A DNA stretch of 11,388 nucleotides, from positions 1 to 11,388 of IMG/VR virus record IMGVR_UViG_2737471853_000002; one strand, written 5' to 3'. The notes beneath the pieces were generated by a model that saw nothing but the letters and a program-made list of their open reading frames with translations, did not search any database and was not told the origin of the DNA. The translations under genes and the position numbers were made by a program. This document shows, piece after piece, positions 4,706-10,789 of this stretch (its first letter is position 1; every line of letters starts with the position of its first letter). Source of the DNA: a virus (taxonomy: Duplodnaviria; Heunggongvirae; Uroviricota; Caudoviricetes).

Positions 4706-5461
4706 TCAGCTCCTGATAAGAGATGTACCCGGGAAACCGCCGAACGGCAGTTCGTTGCTGTCTCCGTGCCGGAGCTTGCAGGCCGTCAGCGTGCCGTTGC
4801 AGACATCCAGCGAGGGATCGTCAACCGGATTATTGTTTTTGTCGAAATAGCGCGTTCCGGCATAGTCGCAGCCGTCGCCGGTCCGGTACTTGTTCCGGAT
4901 GCACCAGCTGCATAACGAATGCAGCTGACGCGTCGGAATCATCTGGCCCTGTAAATCCATCGGACTGGAAAGCGTAAATTCGACAACTTCATCCGTCTCG
5001 GTGCTTCTGGCATCGATATAAAAGACCTTCAGCTTTTCCTGTGACGGGTCTGCAGTGGGATTGCCCTGCGGAAAATTTCTGGCGTCCAGATACTGTGCCA
5101 GCGTGTCGTGGATACTCACTTTCGCCTGCAGCAGATCGTCATACGCCAGACAGAGCGCTGAGATCGAGCTGTCCAGGTTCGCCACCCTCAGTTTTGGCTG
5201 TGGGCTGGTACCATCCGTGGTCGCTTCAATACCCTCAACCTGACACGGCCAGGCTTTATACTCCTCCCCCTGCCACCAGATGGACTTCGCCGGAAGTTTA
5301 TTCTCGTCGCCGCCTGCGGCTTCAATCTCTTCCGGGGTGTGCGCGATATTGTGTGCGTGGAAGCGGAGCACATCTGACATACCGAACGCTGTACCATCGA
5401 CAGAAAAAAGCCGGACTTCATTGCCCGGCTCAAGTTTTTGATAATCAGCATTAAGACTCAT
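4706..5461 (-). CDS. L: Minor tail protein L (tail tip complex)
   Basis: 251 aa ORF resembling lambda gpL, including a C-terminal cysteine cluster (LCSWCIRNKYRTGDGCDYAG...DVCNGTLTACK) in the position of the gpL iron-sulfur ligands. Start overlaps the M stop as ATGA (5461..5458). Confidence 0.88.
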   Translation of the reverse strand: MSLNADYQKLEPGNEVRLFSVDGTAFGMSDVLRFHAHNIAHTPEEIEAAGGDENKLPAKSIWWQGEEYKAWPCQVEGIEATTDGTSPQPKLRVANLDSSISALCLAYDDLLQAKVSIHDTLAQYLDARNFPQGNPTADPSQEKLKVFYIDARSTETDEVVEFTLSSPMDLQGQMIPTRQLHSLCSWCIRNKYRTGDGCDYAGTRYFDKNNNPVDDPSLDVCNGTLTACKLRHGDSNELPFGGFPGTSLIRS

Positions 5462-5810: not shown

Positions 5811-8327
5811 TTACCTGCGATTGGTCGCATTCCAGATAAGCCCACCGGGCTGGATTGCCCTGGCGATACCATCATTGACAGATTTGTTAATCACCTGCTG
5901 ATACGCCTTACCCAGCCTGTCTCCGTCGTTTTGCTGCTGTGCGTTACCGGAAGCATTCTCGACCGTCACCGGGGCATACACACTGACACCGAAAGGTGCT
6001 GCAGCCGGGCCTGTACCACCGCCCCCGACATACCCTCCCGTTGCATAGCCTTTCATCATCCGGTAAAGATTGCCGACGCCGATCCTGCTGGTAGCCTCTT
6101 TGGTGAAAACAAACTCACCACGGTGAACGACACCTGCTGGCTCATATTTCCCGCCTGAACCGGTATAACCGCCACCTGCAAATCCCAGCGCGGTTGATGC
6201 TGAATCCACCAGGCCTACCATCGCCTGTTTCAGCAGGATCTGTGTCAGCATGGAGAGCGTGGAGCGGGTGAAGTCAGCCCAGTCAGCCTTTCCGCGCGTC
6301 AGCATGTCAGCCATATTTTGCCCAATGCCATCAAACGTACTGCTGGCAAACGACTTCATCTGGCCATAAGCATCAGAAGCAGAATCAACATAATCTGCCC
6401 ATGCGGATTTGGCTCCGGATTGCCAGTCACCCCGAAGCTTATCCTGCTCGGCGTAATACGCATGCAGCCCCTGCAGCTCATTCTGATAACCGGCATCGTT
6501 TTCGGAACCTCCACCATTTTTCCACCCCTGAAGAAGCTGGGCCTCCTCGTTGCGGCGTTGTGCTGCACGACTGCTCATACCAGCACTTTCCGCCAGGGCT
6601 CGGGTTTTCTCGCCGATCTGCGTGACGTATTTTTGGGACGTATCCTGCAGGCGATTAAGCCGCTCCTGCGCCACTATCTGATCGCCGAGCTTCGCGTTCA
6701 GCTCCGCACGGGAAAGCACCTCGCTTTTACTGGCCAGCAGGGATTTTTCCTCGGCAGAAAGCGTCCGGGTCTTCGCGGCCTCTTCCAGAACCGTAAAACG
6801 GGACTGCTTACGCCACAGCTCCTGACGCTGCTGGCTGATGGTGTCATTTATCCCCTTATGCTCCTGCAGGGTGCGCAGCTGTGCTTCCAGCTCCATCGTC
6901 TGGGCGCTGGCCGCATCGGTTGCACGGGTACCGGCAGGAGTCCTGACTGCAGGTGTTTTCTTCGGCTTTTTAAGGGTGTCTTCGTACTCTTTTTTCGCGG
7001 CAGCCAGGTTGATGTTGTAGTCAGCCTGGAGGATCCGCCCCTCTTTCAGCGCCTTGTTGAGCTCGCTCTGCCTGGCCGTGTATTTCTCCAGTGCCGTCTG
7101 CGTTTTGGCATAGTTTGCCTGTGCCTGCGCAGCATACTTCTGGCGATCCGATTCCGCAGCCGCTTCGCGCGATGCATTCTCTTCGTTCGCCCTGGCAATT
7201 CCCGCCTGCTGCTGCGCCATATCCAGCGCAAGCCTGGCCGTTTCGCGGTCATTCCAGAATCGGGCGCGAGCCTCATCATTGACATATCGGTCACCTTTAC
7301 GCAGGTTCCAGATTTCATCAGCTTTTTTGAACGCGGCTTCGGCTTTTGCCACCATCTCCTGCGCGGTGTCAGGTCGGCCAATATCGAGGGCTGCATCCCA
7401 CATCGACTTGAAGGCGCGCTTCAGGGAGTCCGCTGAAGACTCTATCGTCCCCATATTGTCGCGGATGGCTTTGGTCTGATCGTTGAATCCGGCTGTAGCA
7501 GCCTCGTTAGCCGCCTGCAGTGCGCCAGCCTCATCACCGGCACGCTGCAGCTGCGCCACATGGGCAATCTGTTCAGCGGTAACGTTATGGAACTGCTGGG
7601 CCATCGCGATCAGGCCCGATGTCGGGTCCGTTGCGAGCTTGCCGTAGGCTGCTGCGACTTTCTCCACCGGCACGCCGGAGGCATCGGTAAACCGCGACAC
7701 CGCCTGGCTCATGTCATCAAAGCGCGAGCCAGCACGCACCCCCGCGTTGATAAGCTCGGTCAGCGCTTCACTGGTCTGGTTGAAGGTCAGCCCCGCTGCC
7801 TGTCCGTTCCGCGCCAGCGCCAGAATGCGGTCAGCTGTCAGTCCGGCTGTGTTGCCCGACAGTACCAGCGTTTTGTTGAAATCAGACAGAGTGGAAGAGC
7901 CCTGGTACCAGGCATAGAACAACGCGCCCGTTGCAACGGACAATGCACCAATGCCGACCATCAACGGGGAAACCGTCCCAATCAGCGCCCGGAATGTCGG
8001 GATGATCCCGCCAAAGGAGTCCTTAACCTGACCACCCTGCTGAAGCAGAATCAGCCAGGGGTTCTGCCCACCTGCCAGCTGCGTGGCCACATCGGTAAAC
8101 TGCGCCGGGAGCATACGCATTGCGGCGTTATACTGACCCACTGAAATACCGGCCTTACGCGCGGCGTTCTCCTGGCGGATGAAGGACTGCTGGATACGTA
8201 ACGCTTCGTCGTTTGCCGCATTGCCGGTCTGTTTTAATTCTTTTTTGACGTAGTTAAGCTGCTCGCTGAATTTCGACGAGTTAACGTCAAGGTTAACGAC
8301 CAGATCACCGACTGCCGTCTGGGCCAT
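5811..8327 (-). CDS. H: Tail length tape measure protein
   Basis: 838 aa ORF. N-terminal region resembles lambda gpH; there is a long Ala/Gln/Glu/Lys/Arg-rich predicted coiled-coil centre and a Gly-rich C-terminal region (GFAGGGYTGSGGKYEPAGVVHRGEFVFTKEATSRIG...GGYVGGGGTGP). Strong Shine-Dalgarno AGGAGG at 8341..8336, 8 nt upstream of ATG 8327. Its position between G-T and M matches lambda. Confidence 0.92.
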   Translation of the reverse strand: MAQTAVGDLVVNLDVNSSKFSEQLNYVKKELKQTGNAANDEALRIQQSFIRQENAARKAGISVGQYNAAMRMLPAQFTDVATQLAGGQNPWLILLQQGGQVKDSFGGIIPTFRALIGTVSPLMVGIGALSVATGALFYAWYQGSSTLSDFNKTLVLSGNTAGLTADRILALARNGQAAGLTFNQTSEALTELINAGVRAGSRFDDMSQAVSRFTDASGVPVEKVAAAYGKLATDPTSGLIAMAQQFHNVTAEQIAHVAQLQRAGDEAGALQAANEAATAGFNDQTKAIRDNMGTIESSADSLKRAFKSMWDAALDIGRPDTAQEMVAKAEAAFKKADEIWNLRKGDRYVNDEARARFWNDRETARLALDMAQQQAGIARANEENASREAAAESDRQKYAAQAQANYAKTQTALEKYTARQSELNKALKEGRILQADYNINLAAAKKEYEDTLKKPKKTPAVRTPAGTRATDAASAQTMELEAQLRTLQEHKGINDTISQQRQELWRKQSRFTVLEEAAKTRTLSAEEKSLLASKSEVLSRAELNAKLGDQIVAQERLNRLQDTSQKYVTQIGEKTRALAESAGMSSRAAQRRNEEAQLLQGWKNGGGSENDAGYQNELQGLHAYYAEQDKLRGDWQSGAKSAWADYVDSASDAYGQMKSFASSTFDGIGQNMADMLTRGKADWADFTRSTLSMLTQILLKQAMVGLVDSASTALGFAGGGYTGSGGKYEPAGVVHRGEFVFTKEATSRIGVGNLYRMMKGYATGGYVGGGGTGPAAAPFGVSVYAPVTVENASGNAQQQNDGDRLGKAYQQVINKSVNDGIARAIQPGGLIWNATNRR

Positions 8328-8658
8328 AGCGCACGCCTCCTGAAATACCTGCAGCCTTCGCCATCAGCGTATTGTCATCCGGTTCATCAATGTCGATGGG
8401 TTCCGGTGCAGTATTAAGAATGCTGAAACTGTCCGGGGTTAACTCCGGATCGGCAAAAAACATGGTTGAGATGGTGTAGAGCAAGCCGGAGAAGTGAGCG
8501 TCCAGCTGCACATCATGAAAGTAATTGTCCTGATAGAAGATTTTCCAGTCGCCATACTCCGTTGAGGACATGCCAGCAAGCATGGCACGCCAGTCCGGGC
8601 GACCGAACTCACGCGCCAGTTTCATGGCAAAATTCAGCTCACTGGCGAGGACTTTTCC
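8305..8658 (-). CDS. T: Tail assembly chaperone T-frame segment, expected to be expressed only as a G-T fusion through -1 programmed ribosomal frameshifting
   Basis: The reading frame is -1 relative to G and open from 8670 down to the stop at 8307..8305 (...AAGISGGVRYGPDGSR*). The supplied ORF begins at an internal ATG (8625), but the frame carries no Shine-Dalgarno-dependent start of its own upstream of the G stop. This is the conserved G/GT architecture of long-tailed phages. The 3' end overlaps the H start by about 23 nt. Confidence 0.75.
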   Translation of the reverse strand, partial: GKVLASELNFAMKLAREFGRPDWRAMLAGMSSTEYGDWKIFYQDNYFHDVQLDAHFSGLLYTISTMFFADPELTPDSFSILNTAPEPIDIDEPDDNTLMAKAAGISGGVRYGPDGSR

Positions 8659-9056
8659 GCAGTAGCGGGTTCAGCGGGTTCATTACCTTCTTCGCCGGAC
8701 GCTGCCTGGTCATCAGTTACCGGCGCAATCATCCCGGACAGGAGTTTCACCTTATATTCCGCTTCGGCAACAAGTTCGGTTGGCCATGACTGCATGACCT
8801 CATCCTGAATCTTTGCCACTTCCGCCGCCGCATTTTCTCCCTGGGAGCCTTTCAGTTCGTGGCCGCGCCATAGCGACATCGCCACGAGGAACGCCCCACT
8901 TTTTACGGTGAGGGTGATGGCTGCCTGAAAATCGCCTGCTTCAACTGCCTCCAGCTGCTTCAGGTATTCGAGGTATTCAATACGCTGCAGCGCCGAAAGC
9001 TGGAACAATGTGACGCTGCTGCCGTTGCTTTCAAGCAGTTCGCTCTTTAGAAACAT
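8634..9056 (-). CDS. G: Tail assembly chaperone G
   Basis: 140 aa ORF (MFLKSELLESNGSSVTLFQLSALQRIEYLEY...SGAFLVAMSLW...) resembling lambda gpG (MFLKTESFEHNGVTVTLSELSALQRIEHL...TGAFLVAMSLW as I recall). Shine-Dalgarno GGAG lies 6 nt upstream of ATG 9056. Confidence 0.9.
   Translation of the reverse strand: MFLKSELLESNGSSVTLFQLSALQRIEYLEYLKQLEAVEAGDFQAAITLTVKSGAFLVAMSLWRGHELKGSQGENAAAEVAKIQDEVMQSWPTELVAEAEYKVKLLSGMIAPVTDDQAASGEEGNEPAEPATAEKSSPVS
8652..8658 (-). other. Candidate -1 programmed frameshift slippery heptamer for G-T (mRNA GGAAAAG; lambda has GGGAAAG)
   Basis: Reverse complement of plus 8652..8660 (cttttccgc) is GCG GAA AAG in the G frame (A-E-K) and (T)GC GGA AAA G in the T frame. 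The two frames overlap only between the T-frame upstream stop (TGA, 8673..8671) and the G stop (TGA, 8636..8634), and this is the only A-rich slippery-type run in that 34 nt. Confidence 0.55.
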
Positions 9057-9074: not shown

Positions 9075-9090
9075 CGGGGCTCACGCCCCG
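9075..9090 (-). other. GC-only hairpin in the V-G intercistronic gap (6 bp stem; loop GUGA on the mRNA)
   Basis: Plus strand is cggggc-tcac-gccccg with six G-C pairs. On the minus-strand RNA the loop is GUGA, a GNRA-type tetraloop. It lies 5 nt after the V stop (9097..9095) and about 18 nt before the G start, with no U tract after it. Confidence 0.3.
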
Positions 9091-9094
9091 GCTA

Positions 9095-9832
9095 TCAGGA
9101 AACAGTGACTTTGCAGATCGCCACAAAGTTACCGTCATTGCTCATGACGATGATTTCGACGGTGCCCGCAGCTACCCCGGTGACGGTCAGGGTATTGCCG
9201 TTGACTGTGACCGTTGCTTTTGAAGGATCAGAGCTGGCTACGCGGAAGGATTTATCTGACGCACTTGCTGGCAGGACAGACACCACCAGTTGCGTTGTGG
9301 CCGCAATCGCCACAGCCGCAGTGGATTTATCCAGGCTGATCCCCGTGACTGCAATCGGCGCGGTACCGCTGTCTTCTGCCAGCGATGGTTTGCCGTTGTT
9401 GGTGATTTTGGCCGTGCGGGTCATGACCTCTTTGGAAGTGATGGTTTTACCGAGGCTGCTCACCCAGCCCTTAAACACATCGACGACACCATTTGGGTAT
9501 TTGATTTTATATCCCCTCACGGTGCCCTCATCGAACCAGGTCACCAGGTCCTGCTGGCCGGAATCTCCCGGCATCCACGCGAGCGTCAGGTTGGTTTCGC
9601 CGGCTGATTTCTGCCCCTGCATCGTTGATGTCCAGTCAGCATTCTCATCATCAATGTAGGTGTCATCTTCCGATTCAGCTGTCAGTTCGCCAGGCTGCAG
9701 GTCTTTAATCTTTGCCAGCCGCAGCCAATCAACGTCTGAAAGCGGATTGGCGTATGGATCTCCGGTTCCGGTGTAAACCCAGAGGGTGGTACCAGCACCT
9801 TTTGTTGGTGTCAGCGGGTTTGGTGTGGCCAT
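9095..9832 (-). CDS. V: Major tail tube protein V with C-terminal Ig-like (Big_2-type) domain
   Basis: 245 aa ORF ([57 protein letters not shown]...) closely resembling lambda gpV ([36 protein letters not shown]... as I recall). The C-terminal ~90 aa are Thr/Val/Ser-rich and beta-strand-like (..[36 protein letters not shown]..), typical of the gpV Ig-like domain. Confidence 0.95.
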
Positions 9833-9839
9833 AGGGTCC

Positions 9840-10238
9840 TCACATGTCGTAAGTAATGGAATATTTCAGGTCGGCAGAACTCCACAGCGCCATATCATCA
9901 TCGCGCTGGTAGTCATAGCCCTGCTGGATCATTGTGGTGATAAGGGATTCAAGCCCAGGAACCTCTGCGAGAACCGGATACACTCGCGTCTCCATCCAGT
10001 CATCCAGCTCAGAATCAGGTACCTGAGCCTCAAGAAAGACTTCGATATGCAGAATGGCCTGCCAAGTGTCGGCGTCCAGTTCTTCCCCGGTGTATTCCGC
10101 ATCGGTCAGGTAAACGGCAACAGCGGGAAAATCACCCTCTTCAAGCACTGCAGGTCTGCCGTCAAAATAAATGGCGTCAGTACCAATCGCGCTCTCCAGC
10201 GCGTCAATAATCACCTTGCGAATATCGCTGTGTTTCAT
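9840..10238 (-). CDS. U: Tail terminator protein U
   Basis: 132 aa ORF ([60 protein letters not shown]...) resembling lambda gpU. Start overlaps the Z stop as ATGA (10238..10235). Confidence 0.93.
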
Positions 10239-10789
10239 CGTGTCAGAATTAACCTGAGTTGGTTGGTAAGGGATGCCCGGAGTTCTTTGGGCATATCTGA
10301 CTCCATGAGCTTTGGCAGTTCTTCTTTAAACGCCGTAGTTAATGGAGCTGCCAGCGGGATGCTGACCACTTCAATGGGGTAACGAGGTTTTGACGTACGC
10401 CTCATGACATGCCAGCGGCCATTTTTAAGTTGCTGGATAAAACCGCCCGGAAAACGGAACGGTCCTATACGCAGAACGCTGTTGGCCCCTTTCTTGTCCC
10501 GTTTTCTGCGGGAAAGTCGCACGCTTGCGGTACCGAGTTTAATGGCCGGTAAATTGCCCCGGTTTACACGGATAAGCGCACGAGGTTTATTGACCGTCGC
10601 ACGCTTCACCCTGGCGCGTTGCTTTACCAGTTTTCTCGGTACGCGCGTATCTTTTGATACGACCGCCACGCTGCGACTGACGGCCCGGTTTGCCACGCGG
10701 TTAACAGCCTGCGCCGACGCACGCGGGACAGCCGTTTTGCTGATGCTGTTAAGGTTTTCTATCGCCTGTTCAAGGCCTTTTATTGACAT
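10235..10789 (-). CDS. Z: Tail completion protein Z
   Basis: 184 aa basic protein (MSIKGLEQAIENLNSISKTAVPRASAQAVNRVA...FIQQLKNGRWHVMRRT...PLTTAFKEELPK...) resembling lambda gpZ, positioned between FII and U. Confidence 0.9.
   Translation of the reverse strand: MSIKGLEQAIENLNSISKTAVPRASAQAVNRVANRAVSRSVAVVSKDTRVPRKLVKQRARVKRATVNKPRALIRVNRGNLPAIKLGTASVRLSRRKRDKKGANSVLRIGPFRFPGGFIQQLKNGRWHVMRRTSKPRYPIEVVSIPLAAPLTTAFKEELPKLMESDMPKELRASLTNQLRLILTR

Follow-up and report, generated by a model that had tools for sequence, protein, structure and literature searches.

The tail-gene module

The window, by which we mean the whole 11,388-nucleotide stretch of viral DNA analysed here, carries a lambda-like tail operon on its minus strand, where the sizes and order of the open reading frames in the ORF list match Z, U, V, G, T, H, M, L, K and I. 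Gene G (8634..9056, minus strand) encodes, in the zero frame, a tail assembly chaperone of 140 amino acids whose translation matches Pfam PF06894 (Phage_TAC_2, E=3e-50), the family of the lambda tail assembly chaperone G. The T-frame coding segment that would be read after a slip (VLASELNFAMKLAREFGRPDW..., 115 codons plus stop; 8305..8652, minus strand) matches PF06223 (Phage_tail_T, E=6e-13), the minor tail protein T family, and both matches exceed the curated cut-offs. The major tail protein gene V (9095..9832, minus strand), directly upstream of G, matches the lambda tail tube family (Phage_TTP_12, together with Big_2), and the tape-measure gene H (5811..8327, minus strand), which lies directly downstream and overlaps the end of T, matches the lambda tape-measure families (TMP_2 and Tape_meas_lam_C). 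An overlapping pair of reading frames, the second in the -1 frame, thus sits between V and H, and the first-pass annotation was right to describe G and T as arranged in the lambda manner. A scan for promoters and terminators around G found none.

The G–T segment shares 97.7% DNA identity with coliphage HK225, 91.1% with N15 and 90.7% with mEp237. Against the whole window HK225 shows 95% identity across 92% of the length, and a copy at 90–95% identity is present in 31 of 5,426 complete E. coli genomes. Judged by sequence, the window belongs with the N15/HK225-like tail modules.

The G–T overlap and its heptamer

On the minus strand the 3' end of G reads GCG GAA AAG TCC TCG CCA GTG AGC TGA, so that the protein ends ...PATAEKSSPVS* with its TGA stop at 8636..8634. 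Translation of the -1 frame begins with a stop, a TGA at 8671..8673 (minus strand) beyond which the T frame cannot extend upstream; from 8670 the frame is open to its stop at 8307..8305 and reads ...GKVLASELNFAMKLAREFGRPDW... along the way. The two frames therefore overlap over 34 nt (8670..8637), the same interval to which any slip had been confined in the first reading. Within it, by direct reading, lies the heptamer G_GAA_AAG (8652..8658, minus strand), in the phase N_NNN_NNN relative to the G frame, with GAA (8657..8655) as P-site and AAG (8654..8652) as A-site codon. When all in-phase heptamers of the overlap were scanned, it was the sole one with a ZZZ run at positions 4–6, in agreement with its having been singled out as the only slippery-type candidate. 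The codons after a slip would be GGA AAA GTC CTC GCC..., which translate to ...AEK|VLASELNFA.

The heptamer departs from the canonical X_XXY_YYZ definition, as had been recognized, because its G-G-A followed by A-A-A has a third position unlike the first two. It does conform to the Z_ZZN tetramer and NNA_AAG hexanucleotide patterns, through the in-phase GAA AAG at 8657..8652 in the G frame. The bare 7-mer GGAAAAG occurs twice in the window, where 1.5 copies are expected, and so is not in excess of chance; the significance of the heptamer stems from its position and its conservation across relatives. The second copy, in frame within gene L (5039..5033), is incidental, and the -1 frame there stops after 16 codons. 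A Shine–Dalgarno-like stimulator of the dnaX or IS911 type (GGAGG-like, 6–17 nt 5' of the motif) is absent from the upstream sequence CCGCTGAACCCGCTACTGC, which is also the most variable region among relatives. Transcriptional slippage at the heptamer was rejected on general knowledge, a run of four A being too short.

The site has a history. In the GenBank record of phage N15 (AF064539), gene 15 is described as the 'downstream half of translational frameshift product', and a misc_feature at 10027..10033, 'slippery sequence for -1 translational frameshift', reads GGAAAAG. These seven bases align base for base with window positions 8658..8652. The site was therefore already known, having been annotated decades ago, and GGAAAAG at the G–T overlap is an ordinary N15-type frameshift site.

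Forms of the heptamer among relatives

We surveyed the heptamer in three ways. The first was an exact-pattern scan of IMG/VR with GCGGRAAAGYCCTCGCCAGTGAGCTGA, which is biased towards the query; all 69 viral contigs recovered carry A at the R position and none carries G. The second retrieved loci with a profile of diverse G proteins, taking one genome per species together with viral contigs, and is again query-biased; it yielded 120 distinct G genes, from 100% down to 36% protein identity to the G of the window, in genera that include Escherichia, Enterobacter, Kluyvera, Yokenella, Rahnella, Buttiauxella, Erwinia, Kosakonia, Serratia, Proteus and Xenorhabdus. Among these 120 genes the heptamer is GGAAAAG in 110, GGGAAAG in seven, and AAAAAAG, GGCAAAG and GGCAAAA in one each. 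GGCAAAG and GGCAAAA are broken forms. The third survey, much less biased towards the query, was anchored on GGRAAAG followed 56 nt on by the T-domain pattern GACTGGCG (DWR codons), and returned at least 69 instances of GGAAAAG (at least 40 distinct contexts) versus at least 47 of GGGAAAG (at least 16 distinct).

These counts are not independent events, since the relatives share descent and the probes are query-biased; read with that in mind, they place GGAAAAG among the major forms of the G–T shift site, at least as common as GGGAAAG and probably the commonest. The three surveys agree that the GGGAAAG of lambda is probably a minority form in its own family. The first-pass annotation had presented GGAAAAG as a noteworthy departure from lambda and asked whether it was a fixed variant or a one-off. 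Being fixed in the close contexts, in the majority among related loci and annotated in N15, it is a variant of the former kind, and its portrayal as a noteworthy departure does not stand.

Apparent selection on the heptamer bases

Codon use at and around the heptamer was compared across the 120 G genes. At the P-site position GAA occurs 110 times and GAG never, in contrast to the glutamate codon five positions upstream, where GAA (62) and GAG (46) are both common. The A-site codon is AAG in all but one gene, which has AAA. The codon before the P site is GCG in 86 genes, CTG in 32 and CCG in one, all ending in G, with GCA in the one remaining gene, whereas the alanine codon at -6 is GCA (33), GCT (31), GCG (9) or GCC (3), and the intervening threonine, valine and proline codons use every synonym. 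The sole GCA precedes AAA AAG and so creates a perfect A_AAA_AAG; in a pattern scan for the A_AAA_AAG context, all four contigs found read GCA, one of them being the contig already sampled. The first base of the heptamer is thus G in 117 of 117 cases in which the P-site codon is GAA or GGA, over three different preceding codons, and A where the P-site codon is AAA.

A requirement for the P-site tRNA to re-pair in the -1 frame would make the first base track the P-site codon in this way, and the comparative data imply that such re-pairing is probably selected. Indeed, all seven bases of the heptamer look selected, so that the site would behave as a near-cognate heptamer of the G_GA type and not as a bare A_AAG tetramer. 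Some of the conservation has other sources. Enterobacteria favour GCG, CTG and CCG as codons, and this accounts for some of the conservation of the first G; the invariance of the last G is partly a protein constraint, because that base is also the first of the first T-frame codon (valine or alanine). The genes compared also share ancestry.

These patterns bear most directly on the possibility that slippage involves one tRNA only, with tRNA-Lys alone re-pairing, the motif amounting to an A_AAG tetramer or GAA_AAG hexamer, and an efficiency like that of a tetramer. Such a mechanism has precedents. With ribosomes of the E. coli type, tRNA-Lys (mnm5s2UUU) decodes AAG as well as AAA and pairs more strongly with AAA (PMC4066793, PMC5009743); A_AAG by itself shifts more readily than any other tetramer in E. 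coli, and the X_XXA_AAG heptamers are the most efficient (PMC4066793, PMC5009743), and with the IS3 pseudoknot the tetramer reaches 5.6% (Sharma et al., 2014, PMC4066793). Natural NNA_AAG hexanucleotide sites exist as well, in IS1222 and B. subtilis cdd, the middle pair formed when GAA gives way to GGA is non-Watson–Crick, and two relatives carry GGCAAAG or GGCAAAA, in which P-site re-pairing would be even worse. A tetramer leaves unexplained, however, why the first base is invariably G before GAA or GGA and A in every case of AAA AAG, when the Ala, Thr, Val, Pro and Glu codons close by are free at their third positions. The absence of GAG does not discriminate between the two mechanisms, as a tetramer would require it too. 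We therefore consider slippage by a single tRNA improbable, and the earlier description of the site as 'one-tRNA-dominated' fits poorly with a first G and a GAA codon that are as invariant as AAG and with a first base that becomes A when the P-site codon is AAA.

Published efficiencies give a scale for the site. For G_GGA_AAG, Sharma et al. (2014, PMC4066793) report 0.28% without a stimulator, a value that rises to 3.8% when the IS911 stimulators are present and to 43% when the IS3 pseudoknot is. By inference, G_GAA_AAG would fall between the tetramer and a perfect heptamer. No published efficiency for G_GAA_AAG itself was found in the literature searched: a full-text search for GGAAAAG with frameshift returned unrelated papers only, a search on the N15 slippery site in tail assembly gave nothing useful, and a study of 64 dnaX variants contains no variant with Glu in the P site (PMC6787027).

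Position of the slip and the start of T

The relatives also locate the slip. Among them the overlap can shrink to 13–25 nt, and G can stop zero or one codon past the heptamer; in Proteus, G ends directly after AAG. The T-frame ORF opens 5' of the heptamer in every member examined, and from the first codon past the heptamer a T-frame peptide, [AV]-[LFV]-x-x-E-x-x-F-[AVI]-[LM]-x-L, is kept in 43 of 43 diverse sequences. With the T peptide retained from the heptamer onward despite such short overlaps, ...AEK|VLASEL... is the sole junction consistent with the family, and it is the junction that the first-pass annotation had predicted from the window.

The same alignment speaks to whether T needs a frameshift at all. 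An in-frame ATG at 8623..8625 (minus strand) lies 8 nt past the G stop, and several records (HK225, mEp237 and RefSeq PGAP annotations) call from it a separate T of 106 amino acids; in this lineage T might accordingly be made separately, by initiation or by termination–reinitiation at that codon. Across 43 relatives, however, the position is ATG in 17, CTG, CTC or TTG in 25 and CAC in one, and reading the window sequence reveals nothing Shine–Dalgarno-like ahead of it, so that independent initiation is not a conserved route. Nor would separate synthesis account for the nine T-frame codons 5' of the ATG, which are kept as protein family-wide, even where the G frame has stopped, for the nucleotide-level selection on the heptamer, or for a T ORF that opens upstream of the heptamer in all members examined. 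We regard this alternative as very improbable. The statement that T has 'no start of its own' needs a corresponding amendment: the window does contain an in-frame ATG, which annotators have used, and what holds is that this codon is methionine in a minority of relatives.

Almost negligible, and already refuted by the comparison, is the idea that position 8656 was misread in sequencing, or that its A arose by private mutation from a lambda-type GGGAAAG, perhaps in a decaying prophage. This idea has nothing more than a single-base difference from lambda in its favour and is contradicted by the same base in N15, HK225 and mEp237, in every same-flank viral contig and in distinct G genes from many genera.

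A candidate downstream helix

Downstream of the heptamer we predict a fold that is a candidate stimulatory structure (8572..8646, minus strand). Its outer helix of 10 bp pairs 8646..8637 with 8581..8572, after a spacer of 5 nt from the heptamer, and encloses a hairpin of 15 bp (8618..8603 with 8598..8583). The fold of 8660..8560 has a minimum free energy of -43.3 kcal/mol. Compared with dinucleotide shuffles its z is -3.5, and compared with synonymous-codon permutations, in which the T protein and its codon usage are unchanged, z is about -2.2 (p about 0.02). For lambda and many other lineages, too, the minimum-energy prediction has this architecture; it is absent from the Proteus, Xenorhabdus and Edwardsiella members.

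Covariation offers a second line of evidence. Across 43 sequences 84% of the cells pair, and 10 of the 25 pairs show double changes. The pair 8643/8575 is A-U in 99, G-C in 45 and C-G in 20 of 180 distinct sequences, with 8% unpaired, and its score ranks first of 19,306 column pairs, with the adjacent 8641/8577 ranking 41st, in a distribution where shared ancestry also gives high scores to many column pairs outside the helix. Position 8575 is the synonymous third position of an alanine codon and changes at 8643 exchange Ser, Gly and Arg for one another, so that a Watson–Crick correlation between them is hard to attribute to the protein. Other analyses were contrary or neutral: RNAalifold on 43 diverse sequences did not recover it, returning a different structure at -1.9 kcal/mol; synonymous variability along T showed no dip over T codons 10–30 (ratio 1.04); and Rfam gave no match at E<=1. 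A conserved downstream structure is listed for the G_GGA_AAG gpG cluster and for an A_AAA_AAG tail-chaperone cluster by Sharma et al. (2014, PMC4066793, Table S4). As a stimulator of frameshifting the predicted helix is plausible but unproven.

A model for expression of gpG and gpGT

Taken together, these observations make it very likely, as far as comparison of sequences can show, that the heptamer serves an N15/HK225-type lambda-like tail module as its site of programmed -1 ribosomal frameshifting, working by a slip of two tRNAs with the probable aid of the helix. Most ribosomes would read G to its stop at 8634 and produce the chaperone gpG, while a minority, their P site occupied by tRNA-Glu and their A site by tRNA-Lys, would move back by one base on G_GAA_AAG. 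We infer that both tRNAs re-pair. The move of tRNA-Lys from AAG to AAA would be perfect, and tRNA-Glu (anticodon 5'-UUC-3'), passing from GAA to GGA, would by base-pairing logic keep its G:C pair and the A:U34 pair and gain a central G.U; the first-pass annotation had reasoned correctly on both counts. Translation would then continue in the T frame (…AEK-VLASELNFAMKL…) to give a gpGT fusion, which, by homology with lambda, may connect the tail tube subunit with the tape measure. The rate of slipping would probably be raised by the helix that starts 5 nt past the heptamer.

Implications

As an annotated feature of a well-studied phage family, the site has little discovery value. It is of more use to annotation and as an example. 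Annotation pipelines that seek only X_XXY_YYZ miss G_GAA_AAG, and the HK225, mEp237 and RefSeq PGAP annotations all treat T as an ORF of its own, started at a non-conserved ATG; a rule accepting G_GAA_AAG in PF06894/PF06223 gene pairs would correct many records. The site also appears to be a clean natural bacterial example in which a G.U pair at the middle position of P-site re-pairing is tolerated and apparently selected, in a family where the textbook GGGAAAG of lambda is not predominant.

A further suggestion, which we offer tentatively and consider rather unlikely as a whole, has two parts: that the helix at 8646..8572 is a real stimulator common to lambda and the N15-type phages, and that the G:GT ratio of N15-type phages depends more than that of lambda on the host 2-thiouridine pathway (Tus/MnmA/IscS). 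Maynard et al. (2012, PMC3296357) showed that this pathway, which modifies the tRNAs for Lys, Glu and Gln, alters the G:GT ratio of lambda. Both tRNAs that would slip here, those for Glu and Lys, carry mnm5s2U34, and a stronger dependence than in lambda would follow.

Comparison with known frameshift systems

Several known sites share parts of the proposed mechanism. GGAAAA fits the two-plus-four pattern of the 'twofour' XXYYYY motif class that PRFect defines among phage chaperone shifts (PMC10274946), a class that, like the other PRFect classes, is descriptive only. The insect-specific flavivirus heptamer G_GAU_UUY, in which X_XX is G_GA (PMC5009743), involves the same imperfect P-site re-pairing of GAN to GGA, but on eukaryotic ribosomes and with another A-site codon. 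Closer in the A site are the bacterial -1 sites of the A_AAG tetramer or NNA_AAG hexanucleotide kind, for example in IS1222 (G_CGA_AAG) and B. subtilis cdd (A_CGA_AAG) (work of Licznar et al., 2003, summarised in PMC5009743; Sharma et al., 2014, PMC4066793), which likewise shift tRNA-Lys from AAG to AAA and have a P-site codon ending in A. Their P-site tRNA cannot re-pair, whereas at the window site two of three positions would be Watson–Crick and the third G.U, and the first base is conserved.

The G/GT system of lambda, with its G_GGA_AAG frameshift (Levin et al., 1993; Xu et al., 2004, 2013, as cited in PMC5009743), resembles the window in gene order, in Pfam families, in the A-site slip from AAG to AAA and in the position of the slip relative to the end of G. 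The T-frame motif after the slip, V-x-x-x-E-L-x-F-A-L-K-L-A-R-E, is also alike, and a comparable helix is predicted. The two differ in the P site, where lambda moves from GGA (Gly) to GGG with a wobble mismatch and the window would move from GAA (Glu) to GGA with a middle G.U, and their G proteins are about 47% identical. The lambda rate of roughly 3.5–4% and the ratio of 30:1 are measured values.

Closest of all are N15 genes 14/15 (AF064539 / NC_001901), HK225 and mEp237, which encode the same G and T proteins at 91–98% DNA identity, with the same overlap and the same GGAAAAG. Differences among them are small: directly 3' of the heptamer the window and HK225 have T, and N15 and mEp237 have C, giving Ser/Val in the former and Pro/Ala in the latter, and the variable tail of G carries a few substitutions between the window and its N15-type relatives. 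On every feature that sequence can test, strict X_XXY_YYZ form alone excepted, the site belongs to the lambda-type G/GT frameshift system.

Sequence context and copies of the heptamer

The base directly 3' of the frameshift heptamer GGAAAAG (8658..8652, minus strand) varies among close relatives, position 8651 (minus strand) being T in the window and in HK225, whereas N15 and mEp237 have C. In the wider family of related G genes, the codon after the heptamer is CCC in 47 and TCC in 46. At the related site A_AAA_AAG a 3' C shifts more readily than U (review PMC5009743), and by this analogy the T- and C-bearing sub-lineages may therefore differ slightly in shift efficiency.

Two relatives, L147 (IMGVR_UViG_3300048929_000058) and L118 (Klebsiella sp. 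BIGb0407), carry GGCAAAG or GGCAAAA, with an Ala codon in the P site. These heptamers have worse P-site re-pairing, or AAA as the A-site codon; the two loci may belong to prophages in decay, or their sites may function via the tetramer alone. A third locus, L204 (IMGVR_UViG_3300003109_000018), has a T frame that extends only 50 codons past the G stop, compared with 109 in near relatives, despite an unbroken heptamer, and is probably a defective copy.

The window itself contains a second GGAAAAG, also in the phase G_GAA_AAG, at 5033..5039 (minus strand) inside the minor tail gene L (5461..4706). This copy is probably incidental, because its -1 frame meets a stop after 16 codons.

Annotation and source labels of the G-T matches

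Public records generally present T as a stand-alone ORF of 106 aa with a non-conserved ATG start (window 8305..8625, minus strand, and its equivalents), as in HK225 (9997..10317), mEp237 (9986..10306) and the E. coli RefSeq matches (H8-H17), all of which leave G and T unjoined by ribosomal slippage. Among the N15, HK225, mEp237 and E. coli RefSeq records compared, only that of N15 marks the frameshift.

The profile search with diverse G proteins, through its genome contig matches, returned lambda-identical G-T DNA in assemblies (L080-L090, L092, L093) labelled Kitasatospora, Neobacillus, Oceanobacillus, Shewanella, Pseudomonas, Leeuwenhoekiella, Chromatium, Pseudoxanthomonas, Psychrobacter and Paenibacillus. 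Eleven loci match lambda G-T without a single difference, and the contigs that bear lambda-identical DNA are frequently of low coverage or about 48.4 kb long. These look like lambda DNA contamination rather than true prophages. Another G homologue (P0074, 73% identity) is labelled Bacillus amyloliquefaciens by its source, an implausible host for a lambda-like tail gene of the enterobacterial kind; its assembly is probably contaminated or mislabelled.

A hairpin between V and G

Right behind the V stop, between V and G, lies a GC-rich hairpin (CGGGGC-GTGA-GCCCCG; 9075..9090, minus strand). As read from the sequence it has no T tract, and a simple terminator scan around G did not call it. The hairpin might reduce expression of G, T and H relative to V. 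Its counterpart in N15 is annotated as a putative rho-independent terminator, and that in HK225 as a stem_loop.
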